Assembly: GCA_016183325.1 (NCBI GenBank)
Contig: JACPEV010000003.1
Coordinates: forward strand, 18,000 to 81,999
Direction of reading: 5' to 3'
Length of the DNA: 64,000 nt
DNA from: Candidatus Curtissbacteria bacterium
GTDB lineage: Bacteria > Patescibacteriota > Microgenomatia > Curtissbacterales > GWA2-41-24
The position numbers were made by a program, and so were the translations under genes. The notes under the pieces are model-generated. The model was given only the letters and a program-made list of their open reading frames with translations. It searched no databases and was not told the DNA's origin. Each line of letters begins with the position of its first letter. Position 1 is the first letter of the stretch. Positions 1,105-54,100 of this stretch are shown one piece after another.

Positions 1105-1512
1105 CTAAACAAATTGCCAGCCCAAATTTTTGCCATACTTTAAGAAATCTTTGTCAAAAGAGAAGATTTTTCCAATATCAAATTTTTGAATAATTGCAAA
1201 GGATGTGCAATCAAAAAAACTGACATTTTTATCTTTGATTTTTTCGAATATGTCGTGGGCTAATCTGTCAATTTGTTGGTCAATAAAAATTATCTTAAAT
1301 TCACTTTTGCGAATTGAGTCTAAAAAGGCTAGCGATTTTTGTTTGGAAAGACGCATGGCCATAATTGTCGCAACTTCATAAATGACGATATTGGAAATAA
1401 CGACTGGTTCGCCTTCATTGGCTAAGTTGCGACTTTTCTCGTAAGCTATTTGGTGATGAATATTGTCCAGATCCCAAATTGCGATGAAGACATTGGAGTC
1501 GACAAAAACCAT
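1105..1512 (-). CDS. vapC: PIN-domain toxin (VapC family)
   Basis: MVFVDSNVFIA... N-terminal acidic PIN motif and a conserved later Asp (FDCTSFAI). 135 aa. Start overlaps the stop of the upstream antitoxin ORF. Confidence 0.7.
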   Translation of the reverse strand: MVFVDSNVFIAIWDLDNIHHQIAYEKSRNLANEGEPVVISNIVIYEVATIMAMRLSKQKSLAFLDSIRKSEFKIIFIDQQIDRLAHDIFEKIKDKNVSFFDCTSFAIIQKFDIGKIFSFDKDFLKYGKNLGWQFV

Positions 1513-1766
1513 TATTTTGCGTATTTGGATTTGTCCCCGTAAAGATAGCGTTTATAATCTTGGGCCAATTTTTTCAGACCGCTTCTGCCAGCTTTCTTGG
1601 CCATGGCCAAAAGAACCGATGCATCCCCTTTTTGCGCAGGAGTTTTGCCAAGTTGCTTATCAATTGTTTCCCTAATGACAGCCGAAAGTGATTTGGCTTT
1701 GCGCCTGGCTTCAAGCTGCAAATGTTGATATTGCTCAAGTCTTAGATTCATCTGCGTCCTAATCAT
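1512..1766 (-). CDS. vapB: ribbon-helix-helix antitoxin (VapB-like)
   Basis: 84 aa with N-terminal beta-strand and helices (MNLRLEQYQHLQLEARRKAKSLSAVIRETI). Translationally coupled to the PIN gene. Tail YLYGDKSKYAK is shared with the antitoxin at 24564-24992. Confidence 0.55.
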   Translation of the reverse strand: MIRTQMNLRLEQYQHLQLEARRKAKSLSAVIRETIDKQLGKTPAQKGDASVLLAMAKKAGRSGLKKLAQDYKRYLYGDKSKYAK

Positions 1767-1838: not shown

Positions 1839-2465
1839 TTAATGACTTAAGCGCACAATTTTGGTGACTTTGGATTTAGGCGACAGACGTTTGGCCGCTA
1901 TTATTTCGATGATGTTTTGGCCATCTTTTAGGGCAAGTTGATAAGAGAAGTTGCCATCGGAATCGACTGGAGCAAATTCGCCGTTTATAGAAACTGTTGC
2001 CTCTTTTTCCGTTTGACCTGAGATAACAATATTGGAGACTTGGGTTGTGAAGTCATCGGGAGGAGTTGTAACTTGCAGTTTCGGACTTTCTAAAATGGAA
2101 GAATATTGGATTACCAAGTAAATAATGAATATGAGAATTGCCAGAGCAGACGCGAAGTTGACGATCCTTTTGGGGGTCAGAAGAAGTTTTTTGGGTTTTT
2201 CGAAAACTGTGGTTTTTGGAGGATACTTTTTTTCATCAAACTCTCTTCTGTAAAGAGCCAAGGTGTGTTGGGCGTCTAACCCCAGATAAGAAGCATAATT
2301 TTGGATAAATCCTCTAACTATCGTCGGTTCTGGCAACTTAACCCAATTTGCGGATTCCAGAGCTTCGAGGAGTTCTTTTTTAATTAAAAGATCACGGGCA
2401 GCTCGCTCAAGGGAGATTCGTTTAGCTTTTCTTTTCGATGAAAGAATTTCAGAAAACGTTGTCAT
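1839..2465 (-). CDS. rodZ: RodZ-like cytoskeleton protein (N-terminal HTH, single TM, C-terminal domain)
   Basis: N-terminal HTH resembling RodZ (KRISLERAARDL...LPEPTIVRGFIQNYASYLGLD), followed by a hydrophobic segment and a C-terminal domain. Confidence 0.55.
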   Translation of the reverse strand: MTTFSEILSSKRKAKRISLERAARDLLIKKELLEALESANWVKLPEPTIVRGFIQNYASYLGLDAQHTLALYRREFDEKKYPPKTTVFEKPKKLLLTPKRIVNFASALAILIFIIYLVIQYSSILESPKLQVTTPPDDFTTQVSNIVISGQTEKEATVSINGEFAPVDSDGNFSYQLALKDGQNIIEIIAAKRLSPKSKVTKIVRLSH

Positions 2466-2480
2466 TATTTGTTGAACAAT

Positions 2481-4562
2481 TTATGAAGCTTGAGTTTGAG
2501 TTTGTAGAAACTCCTCAGCGTTTTTAACCAGAACGTCACGCGGTTTTGAACCTTCACCGGGGCCGACGATACCGGCTGACTCAAGTTCGTCCAAAAGTCT
2601 AGCTGCCCTGGCATAACCGATTCTTAGTCTTCTTTGAAGAAGAGAGGCGGAAGCTCGATCATACTGGCAAATTGTTCTGACTGCTTCTTCGAATAGATCA
2701 TCATGTGATCCGGCTACGCCGAACATTTTACCGACGGGAATTTGAGTGACTTCTTCGGTGTATTCAGGAGCAAGACCAGATCTTTTGAGAAAGTTAATTA
2801 AATTTCTGATTTCAGTATCCGAGACGAAGACACCCTGGAGCCTCATAGGTTTTGCAGCATCAGGAGGTACGTAAAGAAGATCACCTTTACCTAGAAGTTT
2901 GTCAGCGCCAGGTTGATCGATAATGACTCTGGAGTCAACCATTGAGGAAACATTAAAGGCGACTCGGCAAGGAATATTGGCTTTGATAAGACCGGTTATG
3001 ACGTCGACTGAGGGCCTTTGGGTGGCAATAACCAAATGAATGCCGGTTGCTCTAGCCATAGCGGCAATTCTACAAATGGCGTCTTCTACCTCAACCGGGG
3101 CAAATTCCATCAGATTATGAAGCTCGTCGACGACAATGATAATATAAGGAAGGGCTTGAAAACCAGAAAATTCATTATAGGCAGCAATATTCCTGACTTG
3201 GGCTTCATGAAAAAGCTTGTAGCGTCTATCCATTTCGGCCATAGCCCATTTTAGAGCTGAAAGAATTTTATCCGGCTCGACGATGACTGGAGTCAATAAA
3301 TGGGGAATATCGTTATATTCTGAAAGCTCGACTCTTTTGGGGTCGGCAAGGATCAGTTTAATCTCTTGAGGGCTGGCTCTAAAAAGTAACGTCGCAATGA
3401 GGGCATTTAAAAGCACAGATTTACCGGAACCGGTTGTACCGGCTATTAGAACATGAGGCATCTTGGCAATATCGGCAACGACGATGCTGCCTGAGACATC
3501 TAGCCCTAGACCAACTGCGGTTTTTGATTTATTGGAAAGGAGAACATCACTTGAGAGAATGTTTTTCAGAGGAACAAACTCTGGCGAAATATTGGGAATT
3601 TCGATACCGACTAGAGATTTACCAGGAATGGGAGCCTCAATTCTGACATTGCCTGTAAGTGTAGCTAAAGCCAAAGCAAGATCATTTTGAAGAGCTAGAA
3701 TTTTGGAAAGTTTGGTACCCATGGGAATTTCCAAGGCATATTGAGTCACCGTTGGGCCCAAATTGACTTCGACAACTTTGGCGGCAATTCCGAAACTTTC
3801 GAGGGTTTTCTCTATCGTATGAGCATTTTGTTTTACGTTACCGCGATTAGCGGCAGTGCCGTGAGAATTTGAAAGCAGTGAAAGAGGCGGATACTGCCAA
3901 ATTTGGCCTGGTGGCGGATTGTTAACGATGGTCTGATTTGGGGCAAAAACTTTATCGTTTCTGGGGGTGGGGGGAGATTTTCTAGGAAGTGCGTAGACTT
4001 CTTGCCCAGATTTAGTAATAAATTGGGGTTTACCTATAATTTTTTGTTTGATAAATTTTAGTATATTTTTGATCTTTTGGTAGACTTTAACAATTTGGGC
4101 AATAGCCTGATCCAAGCTGGTATTGAAGGCGATAACTAATGATATAAGAAAGATAAAAAATAAAACAAAAGCCGCTCCGACGGGGGTGAGAAGCGGTGAA
4201 ATTATTAACCAAAGAGACTTACCAAAAAGCCCAGAAAAATTTTGGGATAGTGGAGCAATTAGCCCTATGAGAGATAAAATCGCCGCAAAGAAACCTGCGA
4301 TAACATTTGTTTTGGAAAACCGTGAATTAATATGGAGAAAAGGTAGGCTAATAATAATAGCCAGAGGTGGTAAAAAAATAATCCCTATGCCAAAAAGGTT
4401 GTAAAAATAATCTCTCGTGGCTAGCAGAATTCCGGCTTGCGTGAAGAACGACAAAAATAGTAGAACTGAGAAAGCAAGTACAGTAAAGCCAATAATATTC
4501 ATGATTGTTTTCTTTTCTAACTGAAGAGGTGAGGTTAATTTTGCCTTTCGGTACTTTCTCAT
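2481..4562 (-). CDS. ftsK: DNA translocase FtsK/SpoIIIE
   Basis: N-terminal TM helices, a Pro-rich linker, and a motor domain with Walker A (AGTTGSGKS), Walker B (VVDELHNLM) and a C-terminal winged-helix gamma domain. 693 aa. Confidence 0.9.
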   Translation of the reverse strand: MRKYRKAKLTSPLQLEKKTIMNIIGFTVLAFSVLLFLSFFTQAGILLATRDYFYNLFGIGIIFLPPLAIIISLPFLHINSRFSKTNVIAGFFAAILSLIGLIAPLSQNFSGLFGKSLWLIISPLLTPVGAAFVLFFIFLISLVIAFNTSLDQAIAQIVKVYQKIKNILKFIKQKIIGKPQFITKSGQEVYALPRKSPPTPRNDKVFAPNQTIVNNPPPGQIWQYPPLSLLSNSHGTAANRGNVKQNAHTIEKTLESFGIAAKVVEVNLGPTVTQYALEIPMGTKLSKILALQNDLALALATLTGNVRIEAPIPGKSLVGIEIPNISPEFVPLKNILSSDVLLSNKSKTAVGLGLDVSGSIVVADIAKMPHVLIAGTTGSGKSVLLNALIATLLFRASPQEIKLILADPKRVELSEYNDIPHLLTPVIVEPDKILSALKWAMAEMDRRYKLFHEAQVRNIAAYNEFSGFQALPYIIIVVDELHNLMEFAPVEVEDAICRIAAMARATGIHLVIATQRPSVDVITGLIKANIPCRVAFNVSSMVDSRVIIDQPGADKLLGKGDLLYVPPDAAKPMRLQGVFVSDTEIRNLINFLKRSGLAPEYTEEVTQIPVGKMFGVAGSHDDLFEEAVRTICQYDRASASLLQRRLRIGYARAARLLDELESAGIVGPGEGSKPRDVLVKNAEEFLQTQTQAS

Positions 4563-4634: not shown

Positions 4635-5708
4635 TTACCAGATTGGAACATACTCCTTAAGATTTTCTGGCGTAATAGTGATTTTGGTGGCTTTGCCTTC
4701 AATTTTTAATTTAGCAAATTTACGACAAATCCCGTTTATGGTCCTATCCAAGGTTCTGAGACCCGCATCAAAACCCAATGGTCTGACAATTTGGTGCCAG
4801 ACTGCATCATCTAGAGAGATGTCGTTTGGAGAAAGACCAGAGGCGATGATGGACCTTGGCAAAAGATAATTTTTACCAATGATGATCTTTTGCTCATCAG
4901 AATAGGATGGCATATCAAGTGTCTCCATTCTGTCCAAGACAGCTGTTGCAATACCTGCGGTGTTATTGGCTGTTGTCACAAACAGGACTTCTGATAAATC
5001 AAATGGGTAATCTATATAGTGATCCAAAAAACTGCTATTTTGCTCAGGATCTAAAAGCTCCACCAAAACCCCCATGATATCGGCTTTTGCTTCTTCGGTG
5101 ACACGGTCAATTTCATCTAGGAGTATGACGGGGTTTTTGGCACCAACCCTTCTTAATACTTTCATAATCTGGCCCGGTTCTGCATCCGGATAGGCACGGG
5201 ATCTGCCGCGGAGTTGCAATGCATCACCCATACCGCCCATGGGAATTCGGCCGAATTTACGTCCAAGAGCTTGAGCAATGGAATAACCCATGGTTGTTTT
5301 ACCAGTGCCAACTAAACCAAGGAGTAACAGTGACGGAGCTTTAGGCCCAGATTGCTTTTGGGCTTGGTTTTTTTTAAGGCTGGCGACAGAGATATACTCT
5401 AGAATACGTTCTTTGACACTTTCTAGTCCATAATGATTGGAATCTAAAACTTTTTTGGCATTTTCCAAGGACAATATTTCTTCACTTCGAGTGCTCCAGG
5501 GAAGATTAACTACCCAGTCTAAATATCTTGCGACAGATTCATATTCTTGGGAATAACCAGATGAAGCAGCTAGTCTTGTGAGTCTTCCTATCATGGCCTC
5601 GGCTTTTTTGCGGAGGTCTTCTGGAATACGAGAATTTAAAAGCTTTTCTTCCAGAATTTGGAGATCTTCCCCCTGGGTTTTTATTTTATCTTGGGCAGGA
5701 GTTTTCAT
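4635..5708 (-). CDS. Lon-family AAA+ ATPase module without LAN N-domain and without S16 protease domain
   Basis: Aligns by eye to E. coli Lon residues about 270-585: YLDWVVNLPW, HYGLESVKERILEY, Walker A GLVGTGKTT, Walker B ILLDEIDR, sensor LDRMET. The ORF ends where the proteolytic domain would begin. No protease ORF follows. Confidence 0.75.
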   Translation of the reverse strand: MKTPAQDKIKTQGEDLQILEEKLLNSRIPEDLRKKAEAMIGRLTRLAASSGYSQEYESVARYLDWVVNLPWSTRSEEILSLENAKKVLDSNHYGLESVKERILEYISVASLKKNQAQKQSGPKAPSLLLLGLVGTGKTTMGYSIAQALGRKFGRIPMGGMGDALQLRGRSRAYPDAEPGQIMKVLRRVGAKNPVILLDEIDRVTEEAKADIMGVLVELLDPEQNSSFLDHYIDYPFDLSEVLFVTTANNTAGIATAVLDRMETLDMPSYSDEQKIIIGKNYLLPRSIIASGLSPNDISLDDAVWHQIVRPLGFDAGLRTLDRTINGICRKFAKLKIEGKATKITITPENLKEYVPIW

Positions 5709-6691
5709 TTTATGTTAATTAAACCAGAAAATTGATTCTCCTTCAAAGCAAATTCAAATTTGTTGATTTTTTGAAGAATTTCTGAAACTTGAGTTTCTTT
5801 ATTAAAAAGTAACTGGTAGAAATCCCCGGTTGCGGGGTTTTGGGTGGTACTTTGGAATAAGATTGCGATTGAGATCTTCTGGCTATTGTCTGATTTAGGA
5901 AATTCAATTGAGTCTGTCTGCTTTAAGTTGGATAATTCCTGCGCGGCTTCATATGAGGAAACGAAAAAAATATCTTGACCTTGCCTAAAAAGAGTGAAGG
6001 TTCTGGGATTGTCCTCTTTTGATAATTTGATTAAATGATAGTCAATATTTTGGCGAGTTTCCTGAAAGTAGACAGGTTCACCGGCAATTTGAACGTTTTT
6101 TAATGTTTCAAAATTAACCCTGTCGTTTTTAAAAATGATGGCCAGATCGGCATTTTGGCCAAAAATAATCAAACACTGGCCGGCCTCCGATGGTAAGTTA
6201 TTATTAAACCAGGCCGCAAACTCCGGGGGTAGAAAAAATCTTGACTTTACAAATTCTTTAAAGTCGGGGGCCGCGACTGCCAAGTTTGTGCTATTGGGAA
6301 TTTTATACTTTCCGGCTGGAAATTCTTTTGAATTTAGGCGTCGTGCTGTTGTGCCTTGAAAATTAACCTCCCCCGAACCCAGGTTAAGCTTTGCTTTTAT
6401 TGGGAGAATAAAAGCAAGTTTGGCTTGCGAGGTTGCATCTAAGCTGAACTCCACGCCTTTTTTGGTGCTTTGCGGCAAATTTAACTTTTCAAGGATTTGA
6501 GAAAATTTATCTTGATCAGTGTCTTGGAGGTTGAAATTTATTTCGAATTTATTATTTTGAGCTTGCAATATCAAAAAACTAGATTTTTGATGCAAACTTT
6601 TAAAATTTAAAAAGGCAATAAAGAGAATTAGAAAAAATGAAAAAATGATGAGTGTCCCCAAAAATATTTTACTGTTTTTGGGGGTGGTCAT
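5705..6691 (-). CDS. membrane-anchored hypothetical protein
   Basis: 328 aa with an N-terminal TM helix. Its start overlaps the Lon-like gene stop by 4 nt (ATGA). No recognisable motifs. Confidence 0.4.
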   Translation of the reverse strand: MTTPKNSKIFLGTLIIFSFFLILFIAFLNFKSLHQKSSFLILQAQNNKFEINFNLQDTDQDKFSQILEKLNLPQSTKKGVEFSLDATSQAKLAFILPIKAKLNLGSGEVNFQGTTARRLNSKEFPAGKYKIPNSTNLAVAAPDFKEFVKSRFFLPPEFAAWFNNNLPSEAGQCLIIFGQNADLAIIFKNDRVNFETLKNVQIAGEPVYFQETRQNIDYHLIKLSKEDNPRTFTLFRQGQDIFFVSSYEAAQELSNLKQTDSIEFPKSDNSQKISIAILFQSTTQNPATGDFYQLLFNKETQVSEILQKINKFEFALKENQFSGLINIK

Positions 6692-6694
6692 TTT

Positions 6695-8884
6695 TTAATA
6701 CCTTTTGGGGGGGCCTCTCCGATCACGTCTGTCATGCTGACCAAATCTCCTGGGAGAGAAACCTTTTCTCTCTCTGGTGGACTGGCGAGCTGCGTCTTGA
6801 CCAAAATTCATAGAAAGGTTAACTCGGCCTTGATCGTCTACTTCTGTTACCCTGACTTTAACCATTTGACCGATTTTGACAATATCTTCAACTTTTTCAA
6901 CTCTGTAGGGTGCAAGTTTTGAAATGTGAACTAAACCTTCTTTGCCTGGAAGGATTTCGACCATTGCGCCAAAGGGCAAAATTCGTCTTACCTGACCTTC
7001 GTAAACTTCTCCCGGCTGAGCTTCTTTGACGATACCTTCGACCCATTGCGCGGCTTTTTGAGCAGCTTCGCGATCTTTACTACTAATAGTCACAGTGCCT
7101 TCATCGTTGATGTCGATGGCACAGCCAGTGGCTGAGATTATTTTGTTAATGGTTCGGCCACCGGAGCCAATCACTTCTCCAATTTTTGCGGGATCAATTT
7201 TGACCAAAATTACTGTGGGCGCATGTGGAGAAATTTTCTCTCTTGATGTGGGAATAGTCGAAAGCAGCTTTTGCAAAATGTTAAGGCGAGCGGTCTTTGC
7301 TTTTTGCAGCGCTTCTTCTATCATTTTTGGTGGCACGCCTTTTAATTTAGTATCCATTTGAATAGCTGTAATGCCATTTTTGGTACCGGCCACTTTAAAA
7401 TCCATGTCGCCCTGGGAATCCTCCTGATAAGCAATATCAGTCAAGAGAAGATATTTTGATTTGTCAGATTTGTCGGTGATAAGACCTATCGAGATACCAG
7501 CAACCGGTTCTTTGATCGGAACTCCTGCATCCATCAAGGCTAGAGTTGAACCGCAGGTTGAGGCCATCGATGTTGAACCGGCTGAAGAGAGAACTTCTGA
7601 AACAACCCGAATGGTATAAGGGAATACGTCCTGAGATGGTAAAACCGGAACAAGAGCTTTTTCGGCCAAAGCACCATGACCGATTTCTCTGCGACCTGGC
7701 GAACCCAGTCTTCTAACTTCTCCGGTAGAAAATGGCGGAAAGTTATAGTGATGCATGTATTTCTTAGTGCCCTCTCCACTCATTCCCTCGATTAGCTGTT
7801 CAAGCGCAGGCGAGGCTAAAGTCAAGATTGAAATGACTTGAGTTTCGCCTCTTTGAAAAAATCCTGATCCGTGGGTTCTTGGCAGCATGCCAACTTTTGT
7901 GGTAATTGGCCTGATCTCATCGGGCGTTCTTCCATCAACACGCTTTTTTGCGGTTAATATTTGATTTCTTAGAAAGTCGGCTACGGCATCATCTAAAATG
8001 TCTTTTAAGTGTTTGGCTGAAATTTCTGAACCTTCCTTAATGAACTCTTCCTCTAGTTTCTGGGCAGATTCACTAAACCAATTTTCATCCTGCACAACTT
8101 GAGGTTTTTCAAGATCCTTAATAATTTCGCCCTCTATGAAATCTTTGATCTTTTTTTCTTGTTCTTGGGATAATTTCTTTGATTCATAAGACTGTTTTTG
8201 ACGACCGGCTTCTCTTGTGAAATCTTCAATTAGTGAAATTATGGTTTGGCCTTCTTTAAGTCCAAACTCTATTGCTTCAAACATAGCTTTTTCTTCCACC
8301 TCTTGTCCTGCTGCTTCTACCATAACGATTTCGTCTTTGGAAGTTGCGAGCACCAAGTCTAAGTTGGAAAATTTCCTTTCTTCTTCCGTCGGGTTAAGCA
8401 TGTAGCCTCCATTCTGGCGGCCTATCCTGACACCAGCGATCGGACCTGTCCATGGAATATCAGAAATAGAAAGTGCAGCTGAAGCTGCAATCAGTGAAAG
8501 GACGTCCGGGTCATTTTCTTGATCTACAGATAAAACCGTGATAACAACTTGAACTTCTGCTTGGTAATCTTTGGGGAATAAGGGTCTAATTGAGCGGTCG
8601 ATGAGCCTTGCAGTTAGAATTGCTTTTTCGCTAGGTCTACCTTCACGCTTGATAAATCTGGAAGTGGAAATTTTTCCGCCAGCGTATAGCCTTTCTTCAT
8701 AGTCAACAGCAAGCGGAAAGAAGTCCACGCTTGGCGCGGCAGGTTGAGAAACGGCGGTAGCTAAAACTACTGTTTCGCCGTAAGTGGCTAAAACTGCTCC
8801 GTTGGCCTGTCCTGCAAGCTCACCAGTTTCAAGGCTCAGTTTTTTACCTGCAATATCAATTTCGCGTTTTACAATTTTTGGCAT
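6695..8884 (-). CDS. pnp: polynucleotide phosphorylase (PNPase)
   Basis: 729 aa with the characteristic N-terminus MPKIVKREIDIAGKKLSLETGELAGQANGAV, two RNase PH-like domains, and KH and S1 C-terminal domains. Sits downstream of rpsO as in the canonical operon. Confidence 0.95.
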   Translation of the reverse strand: MPKIVKREIDIAGKKLSLETGELAGQANGAVLATYGETVVLATAVSQPAAPSVDFFPLAVDYEERLYAGGKISTSRFIKREGRPSEKAILTARLIDRSIRPLFPKDYQAEVQVVITVLSVDQENDPDVLSLIAASAALSISDIPWTGPIAGVRIGRQNGGYMLNPTEEERKFSNLDLVLATSKDEIVMVEAAGQEVEEKAMFEAIEFGLKEGQTIISLIEDFTREAGRQKQSYESKKLSQEQEKKIKDFIEGEIIKDLEKPQVVQDENWFSESAQKLEEEFIKEGSEISAKHLKDILDDAVADFLRNQILTAKKRVDGRTPDEIRPITTKVGMLPRTHGSGFFQRGETQVISILTLASPALEQLIEGMSGEGTKKYMHHYNFPPFSTGEVRRLGSPGRREIGHGALAEKALVPVLPSQDVFPYTIRVVSEVLSSAGSTSMASTCGSTLALMDAGVPIKEPVAGISIGLITDKSDKSKYLLLTDIAYQEDSQGDMDFKVAGTKNGITAIQMDTKLKGVPPKMIEEALQKAKTARLNILQKLLSTIPTSREKISPHAPTVILVKIDPAKIGEVIGSGGRTINKIISATGCAIDINDEGTVTISSKDREAAQKAAQWVEGIVKEAQPGEVYEGQVRRILPFGAMVEILPGKEGLVHISKLAPYRVEKVEDIVKIGQMVKVRVTEVDDQGRVNLSMNFGQDAARQSTRERKGFSPRRFGQHDRRDRRGPPKRY

Positions 8885-9127: not shown

Positions 9128-9391
9128 TTATTTGGGCAAACCGATCTTGCCGATAATATCTTTATATCTTTCGGGAGCTTTTCTCATTAGATAGTGCAAG
9201 AGACGACGACGTTTATTGATTATAGAGAGTAAACCCCGTCTTGAATGATCATCGTGTTCGTGAGATTTAAGATGTTCAACTACATTGCCGACTCTTTGAG
9301 ATAAAAGGGCGATTTGAACCTCTGGTGAGCCAGTATCCCCCTCGTGCGTTTTAAATTTATCGATTACCTGTTTTTTAGAAGTTATTGCCAT
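9128..9391 (-). CDS. rpsO: 30S ribosomal protein S15
   Basis: 87 aa. Motifs SPEVQIALLSQRV, HLKSHEHDDHSRRGLLSIINKRRRLLHYL. Confidence 0.95.
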   Translation of the reverse strand: MAITSKKQVIDKFKTHEGDTGSPEVQIALLSQRVGNVVEHLKSHEHDDHSRRGLLSIINKRRRLLHYLMRKAPERYKDIIGKIGLPK

Positions 9392-9446: not shown

Positions 9447-10475
9447 TTAGTTTTCTCTGTCAAAGGATTTTGATCCTCGATAAATTTTCGGAGGTTTGAG
9501 CCAATCTTTCTCAGAGGTTTTTTGGCGCTCAACTTCTTCAAGTGGTGTGATATCAAATGGAACTTGAGGCATTTTATCATCATTTTGAGAAATTGGAGTT
9601 TGCAGAGCATTTTGCAAATTTGATTGATTCTGGAAATTATATACTGACTGACTGGTTATTACTGGGTTGGGAGTTGGTGGGGTAAATTGTTGAGAAGATT
9701 GCTTTGGAATGCTTGCACTTTTTGATTCGCTGGCGAGACTGGCTCGGCCCGCCCCAAATTTAATTAACCAAGCAGCAATTTGAAAACTATTTTGGGTACA
9801 TTTGGCAGGAGAGAAACTTTCTGTAGATTGGGAAATTCCAGTGAATAAATTATAGGCGATGTCCTCATCTACTGGAAGTGCCAAGTCTTGAATAAACTGA
9901 GCAGTTACCTCACAAACACTTGCCGATTCTGGATTGGAGAAGTTTATTTGAGCAAATTTTTGGTTCACTTGTTCAACACTTACGTTGACTATGTAGGTAC
10001 TTGAGTCTAAATTTTGTTCACGAGTAATAACTTTTATCAGATCTTCCGATGATTTAAATCCTATTGCAAAAATTAAATCTGGTTTTGCGGGTACTTGTTC
10101 GAATGAAATTTTATCTTGGGAGAGGCCTTTTGAACCTGGGAATGGATGAATGACAATTTTTAATTTATTTTCTTCTAAAAAGTAAGTAACTTTATCAACA
10201 CTTTCTACTGCATCTTGAACGACTACAGCCAAGTTTGCGGTACCTTGTGATTGACCGATTTTGTCGACTCCATAAAGCAAAGTGCCATCTTTAACAGTCG
10301 GTGATTTGCCTATAATAGAAACATTTTTGCTTAATTTTTGACAAGAAAGGTAAAGCGCTAGTCCTGCGGCGAGTCCATCTATGCCAGTATCTTGAAAAAC
10401 GGCAATTAAAATATTCTCTGCTTTAGTGATTTTTTCAAGAGTTTTGTCTTTGGTAATTTGATCCATATCAACCAA
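9447..10475 (-). CDS. hypothetical protein (possible degenerate DHH-like fold) with a Q/P/S-rich C-terminal tail
   Basis: 342 aa. The N-terminal pattern ILIAVFQDTGIDGLAAGLALYL recalls the DHH motif I context but lacks the catalytic Asp/His. It occupies the slot between infB and rpsO where nrnA, rbfA or truB sit in other taxa. Confidence 0.3.
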   Translation of the reverse strand: MVDMDQITKDKTLEKITKAENILIAVFQDTGIDGLAAGLALYLSCQKLSKNVSIIGKSPTVKDGTLLYGVDKIGQSQGTANLAVVVQDAVESVDKVTYFLEENKLKIVIHPFPGSKGLSQDKISFEQVPAKPDLIFAIGFKSSEDLIKVITREQNLDSSTYIVNVSVEQVNQKFAQINFSNPESASVCEVTAQFIQDLALPVDEDIAYNLFTGISQSTESFSPAKCTQNSFQIAAWLIKFGAGRASLASESKSASIPKQSSQQFTPPTPNPVITSQSVYNFQNQSNLQNALQTPISQNDDKMPQVPFDITPLEEVERQKTSEKDWLKPPKIYRGSKSFDREN

Positions 10476-14389: not shown

Positions 14390-14740
14390 TTATACTCGAC
14401 CGGGGTGTTGCTCTTCCCATGATTTCTGACGAGCAGCGCCAATTTCTTCTATATCCGGATGACGTCTTTCGAGCTCCATCAAAACAATACCATGGGCAAT
14501 ATTCCTGAATACTTCATCCCATGTTTCCTCGCCATGGATTTCGAGTCCATGTTCTTCAAAATCCTTGGCTGAAATTGACGTTTCTTTAATTAGTCTTGTT
14601 GCTAAATCAACTAGATTAACATTCGATTCAACAACAGTATCCCAAGCTGCATTCCATGGTACATACGGAACTTGAACCCCGGGTGTCTCTTCAAAGAGTT
14701 TTTGAGTTTTATATCTTTGGGTAATACCTGATTTTAGCCA
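14390..14740 (-). pseudogene. start-less ORF remnant inside the IS, between the left end and the transposase
   Basis: About 115-codon open frame (...PGVQVPYVPWNAAWDTVVESNVNLVDLATRLIKETSISAKDFEEHGLEIHGEETWDEVFRNIAHGIVLMELERRHPDIEEIGAARQKSWEEQHPGRV*) with no plausible start codon. Probably a passenger-gene relic. Confidence 0.3.
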
Positions 14741-15522
14741 CTAGAATCAGTAATCTTTTTCAGTATTCGCTTTACCTGTTTTTCTGTATCCATATTGCGA
14801 TAATTGTATCGCCAAACATACTCTCCCAAAAAGAGGGGAAGATATTTTCTTCTCACTCCTCCTTTGGCGGCCAGTTTTCTTTTAAGATAACCCCAAAAGC
14901 CTTCCAGGCCATTGATATGATTCTTGCCTCGAACGTATTCTCTTTCCCCGTGTTTGACTGTTCTATGAACATAACCTTTAGCAGCCAGTCCTGTATATGC
15001 TCTCCAGGTGTCGGAGCAGATCCTAGAACCAACTTTAACTCTCCTGGTGATAATTGGCAACAAATCAATGGCTTCTGTGTCATCAACCAGCTTGGCAAAC
15101 ACCTTGCCATGACGGGTTAAAATACCGAAGACCGGTTGTTTTGTTGTTCCGAATCCTCGTTTGCTTTCTGCCTCTTTTCTGAGTTGGTTTTTCCGTTTGT
15201 TTTTCTTTTGACCACCAAGATAAGTTTCATCTACTTCGACTGTTCCCGAGAAAACCCTTGGTACATCTCTGGCCATCACCTTTCTGGTTACCATTACGGC
15301 TTTCTCTACTGAATAATGGCTGATTCCTGTTTGCCGGCAGATGGTTTTGATACTGTGTCCCAGTAAAAACCATAACAAAACCTTGTACCAGTTTCTCCTG
15401 GTTAACCCCAGGCCTCCCAGTTTTGGTTTCCACTCATAAAGACAGTTTTTGCAACGCTTTTTACCCCGTCTGACCGAGTAAAGATGTCTGTTTTGGCATC
15501 TAGGGCAAGAATAACCCTTCAT
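14734..15522 (-). CDS. IS1595-family (ISXO2-like) DDE transposase with N-terminal zinc ribbon
   Basis: N-terminal CPRC...CKNC zinc finger, VEVDETYLGG, SDTWRAY, and NGLEGFWGYLKRKL motifs characteristic of the DDE_Tnp_IS1595 domain. 262 aa. Confidence 0.8.
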   Translation of the reverse strand: MKGYSCPRCQNRHLYSVRRGKKRCKNCLYEWKPKLGGLGLTRRNWYKVLLWFLLGHSIKTICRQTGISHYSVEKAVMVTRKVMARDVPRVFSGTVEVDETYLGGQKKNKRKNQLRKEAESKRGFGTTKQPVFGILTRHGKVFAKLVDDTEAIDLLPIITRRVKVGSRICSDTWRAYTGLAAKGYVHRTVKHGEREYVRGKNHINGLEGFWGYLKRKLAAKGGVRRKYLPLFLGEYVWRYNYRNMDTEKQVKRILKKITDSSG

Positions 15523-21810: not shown

Positions 21811-22226
21811 TAATCGTCGATGCTTCTGTCGCCAACAAACTTTTTTTGACTCACGAATCAGGATATAAGCAAGTTAAAACAATCTTCAGGAAGCATGTTA
21901 ATGACACTGAAAAAATCCTCGTTCCAGATCTTCTTTTCTATGAAATAGCTAATACACTAGCCACGAAATTAATGGTTCCCAGTGTAAAGATCGGTTTGGC
22001 TCTGAACCAACTTGATAAATACGACCTTGAGATTTTTCGGTCTAGTTTAAAAGATATTTTCAAAATTGCTGTTTTTGCAAAAGAATTCCACGTTTCAGTT
22101 TACGATGCAACATATGCAGTTCTAGCAAAAGAAAAAGGTTGTGAATTGATTACTGCCGATGAGAAATTTGTGAAACAAGTGAATTTGTCTTTTGTCAAAA
22201 GCTTGCAGGATTATTCAGATGTGTAA
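21807..22226 (+). CDS. vapC: PIN-domain toxin (VapC family)
   Basis: MIIVDASVANKLFL..., internal ...FYEIANTLA..., and C-terminal ITADEKF acidic residues. Confidence 0.7.
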   Translation: MIIVDASVANKLFLTHESGYKQVKTIFRKHVNDTEKILVPDLLFYEIANTLATKLMVPSVKIGLALNQLDKYDLEIFRSSLKDIFKIAVFAKEFHVSVYDATYAVLAKEKGCELITADEKFVKQVNLSFVKSLQDYSDV

Positions 22227-22282
22227 AGCTATATCATCCCCGAGGGCGTGAAGTTATTCGGCGTTTTTTTAAATATTCGAGG

Positions 22283-22318
22283 CTAAATACTCTAATACTC
22301 TAGAGTATTAGAGTAATA
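22283..22318. repeat. cassette-boundary palindrome, copy 1 (TACTCTAATACTCTAGAGTATTAGAGTA)
   Basis: 28 bp perfect palindrome preceded by ggctaaa. Copies 2-5 lie at about 24975-25035, 26300-26355, 27262-27327 and 28429-28494. Confidence 0.8.
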
Positions 22319-22357
22319 AAGATAATCATAAAATTACAAAAGCTAGATTTCTTCATT

Positions 22358-22431
22358 ATCCCGACTCGCCAAGCTATTCCAAACCCGGTTCGGAATACGT
22401 TGGCGAGTAAGGTGAGTTCTGCAATTTCTGA
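22358..22431. repeat. conserved ~75 bp hairpin-forming element, copy 1
   Basis: cgactcgccaagctattccaaacccggttcggaatacgttggcgagtaaggtgagttctgcaatttctga. A second copy (about 85% identical) lies at 28513-28593. Both sit just inside the outermost cassette palindromes. Confidence 0.6.
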
Positions 22432-22435
22432 AAGT

Positions 22436-22522
22436 TCAGGCGGGTACGGGAGCGTTTGATGCTATCAAACCTTCATCCTTAAGCTCTGTCCATAATTCTA
22501 CAGGAATCGGAAATTTCACCAT
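22436..22522 (-). pseudogene. probable C-terminal remnant of the aldo/keto reductase gene
   Basis: 29-codon frame MVKFPIPVELWTELKDEGLIASNAPVPA*, resembling AKR C-termini (VELTEEELAAL type). Lies just beyond the GC-rich insert, on the same strand as the AKR N-terminal fragment at 23871-24078. Confidence 0.3.
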
Positions 22523-22819
22523 TTGGAAATTTTCCTCCGCTTCTTTTGGAGTTCTGGCGCCGGGAATTATTGCCGCAACTGCAGAATGGACTTCTCCGCT
22601 TCAGTGTCGGCAGGGCGAGGGCCAAAAAACGAAAGACCCCAGACAAAGAATACCGGGGTCGGCGCGGGTTGGCACGCTAGTTTCTCCGCGGCTTCGGCGG
22701 CTGCGTTTTCCTCAGCTCGGGGCCGAGGACGATGTCGGAGGGCTGTACGAGCCATTAGGCACCCCTTGAACAAAGGATGCCCCTATTATAGGCTTTTCGA
22801 ATGAACCGTCAAGAAGCTA

Positions 22820-23494
22820 CTAAGGGATTTGTTGTGATTTACGCCTCTGGCGTTGGTTTGTGCCGACGTAGTGCTCCACAGCGTTTCGATCCAAGAACCA
22901 TTGCAGCCCGCGCTTCACAGCCGGCAACTTACGGCGTCGTATCAGATAGGCGACGTTGGTGGGGTGACAGCCGAGGATTTCAGCTGCCTCCGCGATCGTA
23001 ACCGTCGCAGAGGGAGACGCGTCTGTTAGCTCCTTCAGCGAAGCGGCATCTACGACGTTATGGAGCTCCTCGACCGCTCCGTTCGTAAAGATGTTGACTC
23101 TTGTGCGTCGCCGATTGGCATTGCACTCAATGGAAAGAACTGCCTGAGCATGCTTAGGCTGGTAACCTGCCGCTATTCTATCTACCGTGTACTCGCGCGA
23201 TTGAGGGTCAAAGGTGCCGGCAATAAACTGTAGCCTGACAAGCCTATCATCAGGATGCACTTGTACGTGAACGGGCGGATCCCCTTCGTTGCCTAGCCTC
23301 CAAACGTAGCCCTTCCCAAAGGACGGATGCTCAAATGCTTCGGCGTCTGTCCCTAATACTGCGTTCACTGCCTCTACCAGAAACGGCTCTCCAGGCCGCC
23401 ACAAACAATGGAGTCCGTCGGTTTCACGCTCTGCAACGGTCGGGTCGGCCGTAACGGAGCTGCGGGTGCCTGCTATTCTCTCCTGGCTGCTCAC
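22820..23494 (-). CDS. protein with C-terminal excisionase/Xis-type HTH DNA-binding domain (on foreign GC-rich segment)
   Basis: C-terminus VTIAEAAEILGCHPTNVAYLIRRRKLPAVKRG matches HTH_17/excisionase-family helices. High-GC codon usage is unlike the rest of the window. Confidence 0.5.
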   Translation of the reverse strand: MSSQERIAGTRSSVTADPTVAERETDGLHCLWRPGEPFLVEAVNAVLGTDAEAFEHPSFGKGYVWRLGNEGDPPVHVQVHPDDRLVRLQFIAGTFDPQSREYTVDRIAAGYQPKHAQAVLSIECNANRRRTRVNIFTNGAVEELHNVVDAASLKELTDASPSATVTIAEAAEILGCHPTNVAYLIRRRKLPAVKRGLQWFLDRNAVEHYVGTNQRQRRKSQQIP

Positions 23495-23616
23495 AACTCG
23501 TATGATTATACCATGGCGCCGTGTTAGTAACGGTAACGAAAGGTGGGATGAAACGGCGGGGGGAGTGACACGCTCCTAAATTTCGTGTAACATGCACATG
23601 TAACGCGGATCAGGTA

Positions 23617-23856
23617 GTGTTTGGATCGGAGACCCTCATGATCCCTCGGGTGACCATCGACGACATCGCCAGCGACACGAGGCTCTCCCGCAAGACCGTG
23701 TCCCTAGCTTTGCGTCACGACCAATCTGTTGCTGCTGCAACACTCCGTCGGGTCCTAGACGCGGCTGAGCGTCTCGGCTATACACGTAGCCGAGCCGAAA
23801 CGGCGCTCCTTGGGGTGGTGGTCCCTTACTTCAATCATCCGTTCTACTCCGAGTAA
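23617..23856 (+). pseudogene. LacI-family transcriptional regulator, N-terminal HTH fragment only
   Basis: VTIDDIASDTRLSRKTVSLALRHDQSVAAATLRRVLDAAERLGYTRSRAETALLGVVVPYFNHPFYSE is the canonical LacI HTH plus the first strand of the sugar-binding domain. It stops after 79 aa at the edge of the GC-rich segment. Confidence 0.6.
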
Positions 23857-23870
23857 TGTTTCGGCTTGTC

Positions 23871-24078
23871 CGAGCGCGTACTTTGGGGCGGTATCGAAAT
23901 AATTAACTCCCAATTTTAAAGCTGTTTTGACTTTACCAATGGTTGCGGCTTCATCCGGGTTCTCAAAATCCAAAAGGCCCGTTCCTAGGCCAAGGCGGGT
24001 AACAAAAACTCCGGTTTGACCAATTTCTACTTTTTGGGTGGGGACGAAAGAGGATTTAGGTCTTTCCATACCGAGCAA
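23871..24078 (-). pseudogene. aldo/keto reductase N-terminal fragment (gene body replaced by the GC-rich insert)
   Basis: MERPKSSFVPTQKVEIGQTGVFVTRLGLGTGLL...LKLGVNYFDTAPKYALGQAETLLG matches AKR N-terminal consensus (LGLG...G.N.FDTA..YG.G.SE.LLG). The frame then runs into foreign GC-rich DNA. Confidence 0.55.
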
Positions 24079-51153: not shown

Positions 51154-54100
51154 TTACTGTATTTTTGCTAAAGAAAAAGGACAAATGCTGTTATAGGCGC
51201 AGTAAACACAAGCCGGTTCGCGGCCGAAATATTTGGGGTTGGCGACAAAAGAATTATTTTTGGTATCACGGCGGATTTTGTCGGCAGTTTCCAAAATCAA
51301 CTCTTCGGTTTTTTCTAAATCTTTTTGAGTGGGAGTGTGTGCTCCTTCGATGCCGGTTTCCAAGAAGTTGAGGACGACCTTTTCGGGAACGATCCTGTGG
51401 CGCTTAAAGTAGTAAAGCGCGTAGATAGCAAGCTGAATTGATTCTTTAGCCTGAGAATCGGCTTTGTCTTGATCGATGTTTTCGGAAGATTTGTAATCGA
51501 TGATGGTGATTTTCCCGCCAGGTTTTACATCTACCCTATCAAAACGACCGGTAATCGTGACACCTTTTAGCGCGAAATCGAACCTTGCTTCGATAAGGCT
51601 GGGCAGATCTTTTGATTTTGATTCTCGTTGCCAAAAATTTTGGAGGGCAAGTTTGCCTTGAGATTTTCTTTTTTCTTCATGTTCGATGGTTAAAAATCCT
51701 TCACTATCCCAAGCGTTTTCGAAAATTTCCAAAAGCTGGGGAAGGGTTAAAATCCTGCCGCTTTTTTTGGCCCGGAAAAATCCGGCAACGGCGCTGTGGA
51801 GAGCGGCACCGTATACGATAGCGTGATGCCTGAGAGTAGGAATTCTAAGGATATGAATATAGCGGTATTTGTAGGCACACGTTAGATAATCGTCGATTGA
51901 ACCTTGGGTAAGTTTTAAAACATCGACATCGAAAAGTAAAGTTTGGGTTGTGCGGGTAGGTGTTGGTGCAAATTTTTCGATTTTTTCCAGTGGTGAGAGT
52001 CTGGCAATCTCCGCGTCTGATTTGATCTTATCTAATGCTTCCAGCACAAACGGGGATATTTTTTTGACTCTGGCTCCACCAATATCGCGAGACCAGGAAA
52101 AGTAAAGCAAATCTTTAGCACGAGTCATGCCGACATAGAAAAGGCGCCTTTCCTCTTGTTGGTGCCAATCACCGATGGGCAGAGTTTCTTTGATCAAGAC
52201 TTCGGGAACCTCGATGGCATCACCTCGCGCGCGTGTTGGGAAACGATCGGCAACTAAATTGACCAAAAAAACGACCGAAAATTCCAAACCTTTGGCGCCA
52301 TGGACAGTCATTACATTGACGGCATCCACTTCTGGATCAAACTGGACTGTGGCAGGGTCATCACCAGCCCCCCGAATCGCTTCGAGATAATCGACGAATT
52401 GGGTGACTGATTCGACCTTAGCTACGTCAACAAATTCTTTAATTTTATCGAAGAATTTTGCAATATTCTGGATTTTAAGCTGATTTTCAACGCCGCCTTG
52501 CCTTTCTAACTTTTTGAGATAACCGGTTGTTTTCAAAAAGCCGTAGGTAACTTTGCCTACATTTTCGCGCCTGGAGAGTTTAATTGACTCATCAAGATCT
52601 AACAAAAGTTTTTCGATGATGGCTTTGGACTCTTCTGATAGGTCTAAATCTGATATTCCACTGTCATTCTGGCCCTTCGGCAGTGAGCTGCTCAGGACAG
52701 TCGAACTGCTTGTCCAGAATCCGCTTTTTTTGATTCTGGAGTCGTCGCTTCGCTCCTCCCCAGAATGACGGTGTTGGGGTGTAAGTCTATCTAGATTTTT
52801 TAGAACATAATAAAGTGAGCGATTTTTTCTTTTGGCGTATGAAGCGAGTTTGATGGCATCGGCAGGCGGCATTTTGTAAACATCAGATGTACTGAGATTA
52901 AAAAGGTTAAGACTATCTTCAAAATTGGAAATGGCTGTTAAGAAAGAGATTAGGAGATTTACTTCTTCCTGCTGGTATAGGCCTGATGAACCGACAAATT
53001 TATGGGGAATACCCTTCATATTAAGAGCGCGCAAGAAATGGTCGGCTTGGGCGTTGGCGCGAACAAGAATGGCGAAATCGCGATATGAATAACCATCTCT
53101 GCCACCTCCGAGGTGTGAGGAACTTTCACCTCGGAGGTATTTGCTTCTTTTAGCCATTAACTTTTCAATTTCTGCAGCCACTAGATCAGCTTCTTCTGAA
53201 ATTGTATCGGCGAAAATTTCCTGAGGGGATAAGCCATGCCTTATTCCAAGCTCACCCCGGGGGTGTAACCAGACAGCCTTTAATTTTTTATCTATTTTGT
53301 TTTGGACTTCCAGCCGGTCGGGGTCATTGTGGCGGATGAGACGATAAGCACTATTTAAAATGGATTGGGTTGAACGGTAGTTTTGGTTTAGAACCACTTG
53401 GTGGGCTTTTGGATATGTTTTTTTAAACTCTAAAATGTTTGAAATTGCAGCGCCGCGGAATTTGTAGATTGAATTATGAACAACAATATTGTTTGCAATA
53501 AAATTATGCGTTTTTTCAATTTCAAGATCATAGACTGTTAGTGTTTTTTCTTCTTCTGTGATTTCAATTATTTCATCATAATAAACCCGATTATTAACAA
53601 CTATCGGTACACGATGGCCAAGAACTAGATTACTTGCTGGCATTATCAGGGCTGGCTTGCTCTGAAAGCTTGCAAAACCTAAAGCGAATTTTGCCTCTAG
53701 AAAACCACCAGTAAAATCAGTTATTTTTTGTGCGAGTTTGCCCAGATTTAACAAATCGCTGCTTTGAATTCTTAATCTTAGGCCTTTTTTTGCTTTCTGG
53801 AGTTGATAGCCCGCATCTTGCAATAGTTTAATTATCTTAGGATTAGTGGTCTCTAAGTGCAGTGTGTGGGCTATCAATGGGCTTTTAAGAATTTCCTTGG
53901 ATTTGGAGTGATAATTTCTTGAACAGATTTCCAAATTAATTTTTATTCTTCGACTTGATCCTCGAGTGACTGCATTTAAGGTATAGTGAGAAGAATTGAG
54001 GTCTATATGTAAGTCTTGAGCCAGTTTAGCAGCGTTAGCATAACTATCAATATCTTTGTATAACTTCATGAGGGAATCTCCTTTTATTTCAATTCCAATC

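Follow-up and report, generated by a model that had tools for sequence, protein, structure and literature searches.

A stretch of 64,000 nucleotides from a Candidatus Curtissbacteria genome (contig JACPEV010000003.1, positions 18,000 to 81,999), analysed at full length and referred to as the window, encodes a protease-less Lon-type AAA+ ATPase, for which the name LonAAA is used here. Judged from sequence comparisons, LonAAA is probably a working ATPase derived from the LonA protease, which has lost both the N-terminal substrate-binding domain (N domain) and the S16 peptidase domain, and which is a core housekeeping gene across the Microgenomates, a class of the candidate phyla radiation (CPR). 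The gene and its domains are laid out as follows:

4635..5708, minus strand: LonAAA gene, 357 aa, an open reading frame (ORF) with an ATG start and a TAA stop
5379..5669, minus strand: N-terminal helical region (aa 14-110) with the YLDWxxxLPW motif, homologous to the C-terminal part of the LonA HI(CC) domain (three-helix bundle)
4686..4841, minus strand: Lon-type lid, the small alpha-helical subdomain (PF22667 Lon_lid, residues 290-341)

Three parts of LonA are present in LonAAA: the three-helix bundle, the nucleotide-binding domain and the lid. The sole Pfam matches are AAA (residues 127-262) and Lon_lid, and there is no Pfam match in LonAAA to the N domain (PF02190, LON_substr_bdg) or to the S16 Ser-Lys peptidase domain (PF05362, Lon_C). 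The NCBIfam model TIGR00763 'endopeptidase La' aligns at model positions 253-571 of 795, that is over its central third only, with a score of 332.7 bits that lies below the cut-off of 608, and the PRK10787 score (267 bits) is likewise below its cut-off of 891. The best solved relatives are LonA proteases and every strong match is confined to the AAA+ region: LonA of B. subtilis (3M6A) covers residues 15-354 of the query at E=1.2e-79, and the engineered E. coli fragment 6N2I pairs query residues 16-355 with chain positions 11-340, the E-values to the LonA structures being far beyond chance. LonAAA was tested for three defining features of a LonA protease and lacks them all (N domain, S16 domain and curated score), and the pore-loop signature of LonA is also missing. 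An earlier reading of this DNA, the original prediction, had described the ORF as the Lon AAA+ region only, with neither outer domain, which agrees with these results. Its mention of a coiled coil was right in part: the last portion of HI(CC) is retained as a three-helix bundle (about residues 14-110), and there is no long coiled coil. This helical region aligns to BsLon(240-774) from residue 9 on, carries a 3-residue insertion relative to canonical Lon, and is predicted to form helices at 4-24, 30-49 and 53-67 in the AlphaFold model. An exact copy of the protein is deposited in NCBI under the title 'AAA family ATPase [Ca. Curtissbacteria]'; JGI labels proteins of this type 'ATP-dependent Lon protease', which is wrong as regards proteolysis, and neither Pfam nor NCBIfam holds a model that covers the protease-less Lon-AAA family as such.

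The motifs on which the function of such an ATPase would depend are distributed along the gene in the order given below; their conservation was counted over 87 complete members of the family.

5295..5318, minus strand: Walker A, GLVGTGKT (canonical Lon GPPGVGKT); G131, G134, G136, K137 and T138 invariant in 87/87
5172..5210, minus strand: pore-loop-1 equivalent, RGRSRAYPDAEPG (canonical RGHRRTY[VI]GA[ML]PG)
5106..5129, minus strand: Walker B, VILLDEID; D198 and E199 invariant in 87/87
5070..5105, minus strand: pore-loop-2 region, RVTEEAKADIMG (canonical K[LM]xxDFRGDPxS)
4962..4973, minus strand: sensor-1, TANN; N248 invariant in 87/87
4923..4937, minus strand: arginine finger, LDRME; R260 invariant in 87/87
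4743-4763, minus strand: sensor-2, GLRTLDR, within the lid; R318 invariant in 87/87
4638..4664, minus strand: C-terminal end, NLKEYVPIW followed by the stop; family motif [FY][LIV]Px[WY]-COOH

The classical AAA+ set of Walker A, Walker B, sensor-1, arginine finger and sensor-2 is complete in LonAAA, so that all residues for ATP binding and hydrolysis are kept together with the arginine finger that acts in trans. The motifs quoted from the first inspection (YLDWVVNLPW, Walker A GLVGTGKT, Walker B VILLDEID, LDRME and GLRTLDR) were all located in the ORF. The LDPEQN motif and the DHYxDxPxDLS stretch that precedes sensor-1 are the same as in canonical Lon, and Walker A of the family reads GL[VA]GTGKT.

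When one genome for each GTDB species was scanned with a profile, at least 590 relatives of LonAAA were found. The best 80 of them share 49-73% identity with it, are all 340-390 aa long and are all protease-less, and their titles name nine Microgenomates lineages (Curtiss-, Shapiro-, Gottesman-, Ames-, Woese-, Levy-, Roizman-, Davies- and Collierbacteria). The inspection of orthologous loci that had been proposed as a check has thus been carried out, with the protease-less architecture recurring in the best 80 species loci. More than 120 relatives in NCBI at 70-78% identity are all 345-360 aa long with the same two domains; distant members (40-55% identity), one of them from Dojkabacteria, have the same architecture, some with disordered N- or C-terminal extensions. 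The family is defined here by a length of 340-390 aa, an end just past the lid, Walker A of the form GL[VAQ]GxGKT, an xP[DE]AEPG loop and the A[KR]ADIMG motif, and LonAAA of the window has the length and the motifs of this Microgenomates family. In a neighbour-joining tree of AAA+ modules, all locus-derived members and 11 database representatives fall into a single clade of 40 tips, to which no protease-bearing Lon belongs, and LonAAA of the window is placed within it.

The strength of selection on the gene was judged from nonsynonymous divergence (dN) compared between genes, since synonymous divergence (dS) is saturated and dN/dS mostly not computable. Among Curtissbacteria the dN of LonAAA is 0.20-0.23, next to 0.18-0.26 for polynucleotide phosphorylase (PNPase) and 0.20-0.25 for FtsK. 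LonAAA is conserved as strongly as essential genes and stands within a conserved housekeeping block.

No informative fusion was found among family members. Two candidates were set aside: in P0148 (669 aa) the N-terminal 310 residues are low-complexity and Q/P-rich, and P0192 ends in a disordered, S/N-rich tail of 190 aa. Outside the window, seven proteins (P0127, P0129, P0131, P0134, P0137, P0139 and P0163; 889-1379 aa, several on contigs of 0.3-8.5 Mb) carry two or three tandem Lon-type AAA+ modules followed by one Lon_C, and in the neighbour-joining tree some modules of P0129, P0134, P0137, P0139 and P0163 branch immediately outside the protease-less family.

In the pore loops, where Lon touches its substrate, the family differs from canonical Lon. 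Pore loop 1 reads RGxSRxxP[DE]AEPG in the family against RGHRRTY[VI]GA[ML]PG in canonical Lon. Over the 87 members the Tyr position is occupied by H26/Y15/F13/R9 and others, so that the aromatic is not conserved, and the residue after it, V or I in canonical Lon, is P55/A13/L10. Position 175 is acidic in 82/87 and position 177 in 86/87, in place of the canonical G and M/L. Pore loop 2 is A[KR]ADIMG against FRGDP. LonAAA of the window retains the pore-loop Tyr (AYPD), as other Curtissbacteria proteins retain Tyr or Phe. At the other end of the module, the [FY][LIV]Px[WY] motif, with W or Y as the last residue in 58/87 members, matches the canonical YLGxxx[FY] linker that enters the Lon protease domain, and the ORF ends, as was said of it at the outset, at the boundary between AAA+ and protease. 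This C-terminal motif could serve in lid packing or in partner docking.

From these features a mode of action may be proposed. Because the strictly conserved arginine finger acts across subunit interfaces, LonAAA would assemble into a ring, probably a hexamer, and fire ATP around it as Lon does; a precedent is the engineered EcLon(235-584) fragment, which has the same boundaries and forms an open hexamer in crystals. The lining of its channel appears rebuilt, with the aromatic-hydrophobic pore loop turned into the Pro-rich acidic loop x-P-[DE]-A-E-P-G and pore loop 2 altered as well. Given an acidic loop rich in proline and the lack of conservation of the aromatic-hydrophobic paddle, the processive threading of polypeptides into a degradation chamber has most likely been given up. 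LonAAA would more likely be an ATP-driven remodeller or chaperone, or a holder, of specific, possibly basic, clients. What could these clients be? RNA-turnover or ribosomal proteins, which are basic, may be candidates, attractive because of the acidic loop and the tight placement of the gene between those for PNPase and RNase J, next to rpsO.

The genes that surround LonAAA in the window are all on the minus strand, in the order hrcA-grpE-dnaK-x-dnaJ, IS1595 transposase, nusA, infB, DHH-like gene, rpsO, pnp, UP328, LonAAA, ftsK, rodZ-like. Those nearest to it are:

9128..9391, minus strand: rpsO (ribosomal protein S15)
6695..8884, minus strand: pnp (PNPase), homologous genes with two RNase_PH, KH and S1
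5705..6691, minus strand: UP328, N-terminally membrane-anchored hypothetical protein, ATGA overlap with LonAAA
4563..4634, no strand: spacer of 72 nt between LonAAA and ftsK, with no protease coding potential and no terminator-like hairpin
2481..4562, minus strand: ftsK (DNA translocase), with FtsK_alpha, FtsK_SpoIIIE and FtsK_gamma
1839..2465, minus strand: RodZ-like HTH_25 membrane protein, conserved after ftsK

The usual order in the family is infB-DHH-like-rpsO-pnp-LonAAA-(udg)-rnj-ftsK-rodZ-like. In most Microgenomates (loci L010-L088) the genes found after LonAAA and before ftsK encode a uracil-DNA glycosylase of the family-4/5 type (udg, ~210 aa) and RNase J (rnj, ~550 aa); in Curtissbacteria both are missing at this site, the whole window has neither of them, and LonAAA adjoining ftsK is specific to Curtissbacteria. 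Synteny was counted over the 53 species loci with both flanks available. There, pnp lies directly upstream of LonAAA in 40; 37 loci have pnp upstream together with rnj downstream, three have pnp only, seven rnj only and six neither. The intergenic gaps are mostly 6-75 nt from pnp to LonAAA and 2-120 nt from LonAAA to rnj (28/50 loci). The window therefore has LonAAA in the family position, with rpsO and pnp upstream and ftsK downstream, UP328 added and rnj gone, as in other Curtissbacteria. Promoter and terminator scans gave results no better than shuffles. Between infB and rpsO lies a gene of 342 aa (9447-10475, minus strand), which has no Pfam match in the window and of which one relative has a faint DHH match; it may be a very divergent NrnA-like nanoRNase, which would make it the third RNA-decay gene of the block.

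In a more specific form of the proposal, CPR bacteria would have a machine for RNA decay in which LonAAA is the ATP-driven remodelling subunit. Co-expressed with PNPase and RNase J from a gene that lies between theirs, LonAAA would use its acidic pore to remove or shift basic proteins, either RNA-binding or ribosomal, or would organise the two nucleases. If true, this would be the role that a DEAD-box helicase usually has in degradosomes, and a new function for a Lon-derived motor. We consider it unlikely, because the neighbourhood may simply be an inherited block.

If the ATPase has been kept and the peptidase is missing from the gene, could the peptidase be encoded elsewhere? In the split-gene explanation, which had also been put forward from the sequence, LonAAA and a separately encoded S16 peptidase would rebuild a two-component Lon protease. 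The end of the ORF exactly at the AAA+/protease boundary would suit it, the conserved [FY][LIV]Px[WY] terminus could dock the missing half, and the pore-loop Tyr is kept in the Curtissbacteria proteins. The halves were sought with Lon_C and Lon-N hidden Markov models (HMMs) custom-built from ten full-length Lons, and neither model had a match in the 64 kb window and loci L001-L008, translated in six frames, or in the ORFs of 50 aa or longer from the full set of 88 related loci (~0.9 Mb); the Lon_C search covered the window and these loci, which leaves room for a distant S16 gene. Canonical Lon is present in at least one other CPR lineage, Falkowbacteria, and a homology search with the Lon_C domain of the Falkowbacteria protein returned generic, mostly fragmentary Lons and no named Microgenomates match, a result that carries no weight either way. 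Two short Lon_C-only matches on long contigs were frameshifted canonical Lons, with N, AAA and Lon_C fragments side by side. In full-text searches of the literature no description of a protease-less Lon or of Lon in CPR bacteria was found, and the Microgenomates complete-genome paper makes no mention of Lon. Against a split Lon stand the absence of any Lon_C within 6-10 kb of the gene in the 88 loci or anywhere in the window, the old, monophyletic and length-stable character of the family, the loss of the threading aromatic of the pore loop in most members, and the loss of the N-terminal substrate domain as well. With no Lon_C in the window or these loci and a pore loop that is degenerate across the family, the split gene is unsupported, and only an outside chance can be given to it.

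By analogy with ClpX or HslU, LonAAA might instead unfold substrates for an unrelated peptidase of the ClpP, HslV or M16 type. The conserved aromatic C-terminus could dock onto such a partner, and one distant member adjoins two M16 and one M23 peptidase genes; yet none of the conserved neighbours in the 80 species loci encodes a peptidase, the pore loop has degenerated, and no IGF-type docking loop is evident in the alignment, so that this explanation is improbable too. Distant members stand in unrelated settings, either with M16/M23 peptidases and a type IV secretion cluster or with Big_5/C39 surface proteins. At L006 the two M16 peptidases are upstream of the protease-less member and the M23 peptidase is 4 nt downstream; in L006, L008 and L091 distant protease-less members lie a few kb from large Big_5 / Peptidase_C39_2 surface proteins. 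A role in defence, as a BREX BrxL-like or other defence ATPase, was considered and found unsupported, since PADLOC gave weak generic AAA matches only for LonAAA (IetA, 22.7 bits) and the setting is a housekeeping operon.

A Lon-derived ATPase that works with another partner was the remaining suggestion of the original prediction, and its first half, a stand-alone Lon-derived ATPase, is well supported. The partner that it named, the upstream membrane protein UP328, fares worse. UP328 overlaps LonAAA by 4 nt (ATGA) as had been noted, and this start/stop overlap, seen in the window and in other Curtissbacteria, would fit a membrane-tethered machine with translational coupling of its two components. 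However, UP328 is found in all five Curtissbacteria loci (L001-L005) and in only 2/80 GTDB species loci, and the ATPase directly follows pnp in most lineages; the insertion, seen in Curtissbacteria and one Daviesbacteria locus, is too restricted for a family-wide partner. UP328 also evolves two to four times faster than LonAAA (dN 0.47-0.84 vs 0.20-0.23). It has no Pfam or NCBIfam match and only six database relatives (37-56% identity). Its model (pLDDT, the predicted local distance difference test score, 81) shows a transmembrane helix at 6-33 followed by an alpha/beta domain, for which the fold search gave a single, weak match, the lipoprotein TP0453 of T. pallidum; the anchor and this match suggest that UP328 is probably located outside the cytoplasm. 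Taken together, a machine of LonAAA and UP328 is very unlikely. Two other proposals about UP328 were rejected, namely that it is a diverged Lon N domain (the Lon-N HMM was negative and no Lon N-domain structures were among the fold matches) and that it is related to the DUF4012 protein preceding a distant family member (hhalign probability 0.3%).

That LonAAA is a decayed Lon, a pseudogene remnant or an assembly or frameshift artefact of a normal lon, for which nothing speaks beyond the truncated architecture itself, is next to inconceivable, since the identical architecture occurs in hundreds of independent assemblies and at least 590 genomes, purifying selection is strong with dN as low as in PNPase and FtsK, the catalytic residues are invariant, real frameshifted Lons look different, as adjacent N, AAA and Lon_C fragments, and the 72-nt gap, correctly measured in the original prediction, leads directly into ftsK and carries, with the sequence beyond it, stops in the other frames, so that no frameshift can restore a protease domain downstream.

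Several points weigh against a stand-alone motor that has abandoned threading, and they should be held against the evidence given above. The pnp/rnj setting belongs to a long conserved block (nusA-infB-...-ftsK-rodZ) and may reflect inherited order rather than shared function; in B. subtilis, pnpA, rnjB and spoIIIE presumably also lie within one region. An S16 gene far from the locus, or a second canonical lon, is possible beyond the window and the 88 loci. The Tyr or Phe kept in the pore loop of the Curtissbacteria proteins makes threading by LonAAA of the window itself possible. In LonA the protease ring adds to the stability of the hexamer, a contribution that the ring proposed for LonAAA would lack. 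Finally, the AlphaFold model of LonAAA is of low confidence (pLDDT 65.6, from a shallow alignment) and was left out of the fold search.

The rest of the window holds several features of its own. At 51154-55386 (minus strand) a UvrD/AddA-type helicase-nuclease of 1410 aa (UvrD-helicase, UvrD_C, PD-(D/E)XK) has an intein inserted at about residues 277-638 (Intein_splicing/Hint). The IS1595-family (ISXO2-like DDE) transposase between dnaJ and nusA (14734-15522, minus strand) splits the dnaK-operon / nusA-infB block, which is otherwise conserved and is seen in L003. Directly after the rodZ-like gene, a PIN-domain toxin (1105-1512, minus strand) overlaps an 84-aa ORF (1512-1766, minus strand) by one base, and the pair is probably a toxin-antitoxin system of the VapBC type; a PIN/HTH (helix-turn-helix) pair is also found near the ATPase in L007. 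Positions 22001-24000, which include an HTH_17 protein (22820-23494), have a GC content of 0.505 against ~0.40 elsewhere, and since tRNA and Rfam scans of the whole window were empty and no such match accounts for the bump, it may be foreign DNA.

Lon is the standard example of a protein in which an AAA+ motor and its peptidase are fused, and the Microgenomates offer a natural experiment on the Lon ATPase alone, in which the motor has been kept under housekeeping-level selection across a bacterial class after the loss of the peptidase and of the substrate-recognition domain. The family is relevant to the long-discussed chaperone-like activity of Lon, and it draws attention to a core gene of CPR bacteria, in which genomes are minimal and little that is dispensable has been retained; concrete leads for experiment are the acidic form that the pore loop has taken and the close packing of LonAAA between pnp and rnj. 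That a Lon motor without a protease and with an altered pore is strongly conserved throughout a class is notable, yet the motor is an elaboration of a well-known fold.

How does LonAAA compare with the systems already described? With LonA (B. subtilis 3M6A, Meiothermus Lon and E. coli Lon) it shares ~40-45% identity over the three-helix bundle, the nucleotide-binding domain and the lid, and has in common Walker A/B, LDPEQN, the DHYxDxPxDLS stretch, sensor-1, the Arg finger and sensor-2. Unlike LonA, it has neither LON_substr_bdg nor the S16 Ser-Lys peptidase, it has GL[VA]GTGKT as Walker A, both pore loops are changed, three residues are inserted in the helical region, and it reaches about half the cut-off score of TIGR00763. 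ClpX and HslU are stand-alone unfoldases of the same AAA+ clade as Lon (HCLR) and resemble LonAAA as single-ring ATPases encoded apart from a peptidase, provided that LonAAA forms the ring proposed here; they keep aromatic pore loops and docking elements for ClpP/HslV, whereas neither a docking loop nor a peptidase partner was found for LonAAA. RuvB, another AAA+ member of the HCLR clade, has nucleic acid and not protein as its substrate; it is a relative of the Lon ATPase without a link to proteolysis and thus a precedent for non-protein substrates in the clade. It shows no detectable specific similarity to LonAAA beyond the common AAA+ core, and the acidic pore loop, as read from the sequence, argues against direct nucleic-acid threading by LonAAA. 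The closest described object is the engineered EcLon(235-584) (PDB 6N2I), whose boundaries are almost identical to those of LonAAA and which folds and packs in crystals as an open hexameric spiral (PMC6722904); it is a laboratory truncation with canonical pore loops, whereas LonAAA is a gene that natural selection maintains on its own, and its pore has changed. LonC and Lon-like proteases with an inactive ATPase (PMC3391209) appear as the mirror image of the LonAAA family, having kept the protease and lost ATP-powered unfolding where LonAAA did the reverse, and they show that evolution can separate the two halves of Lon.

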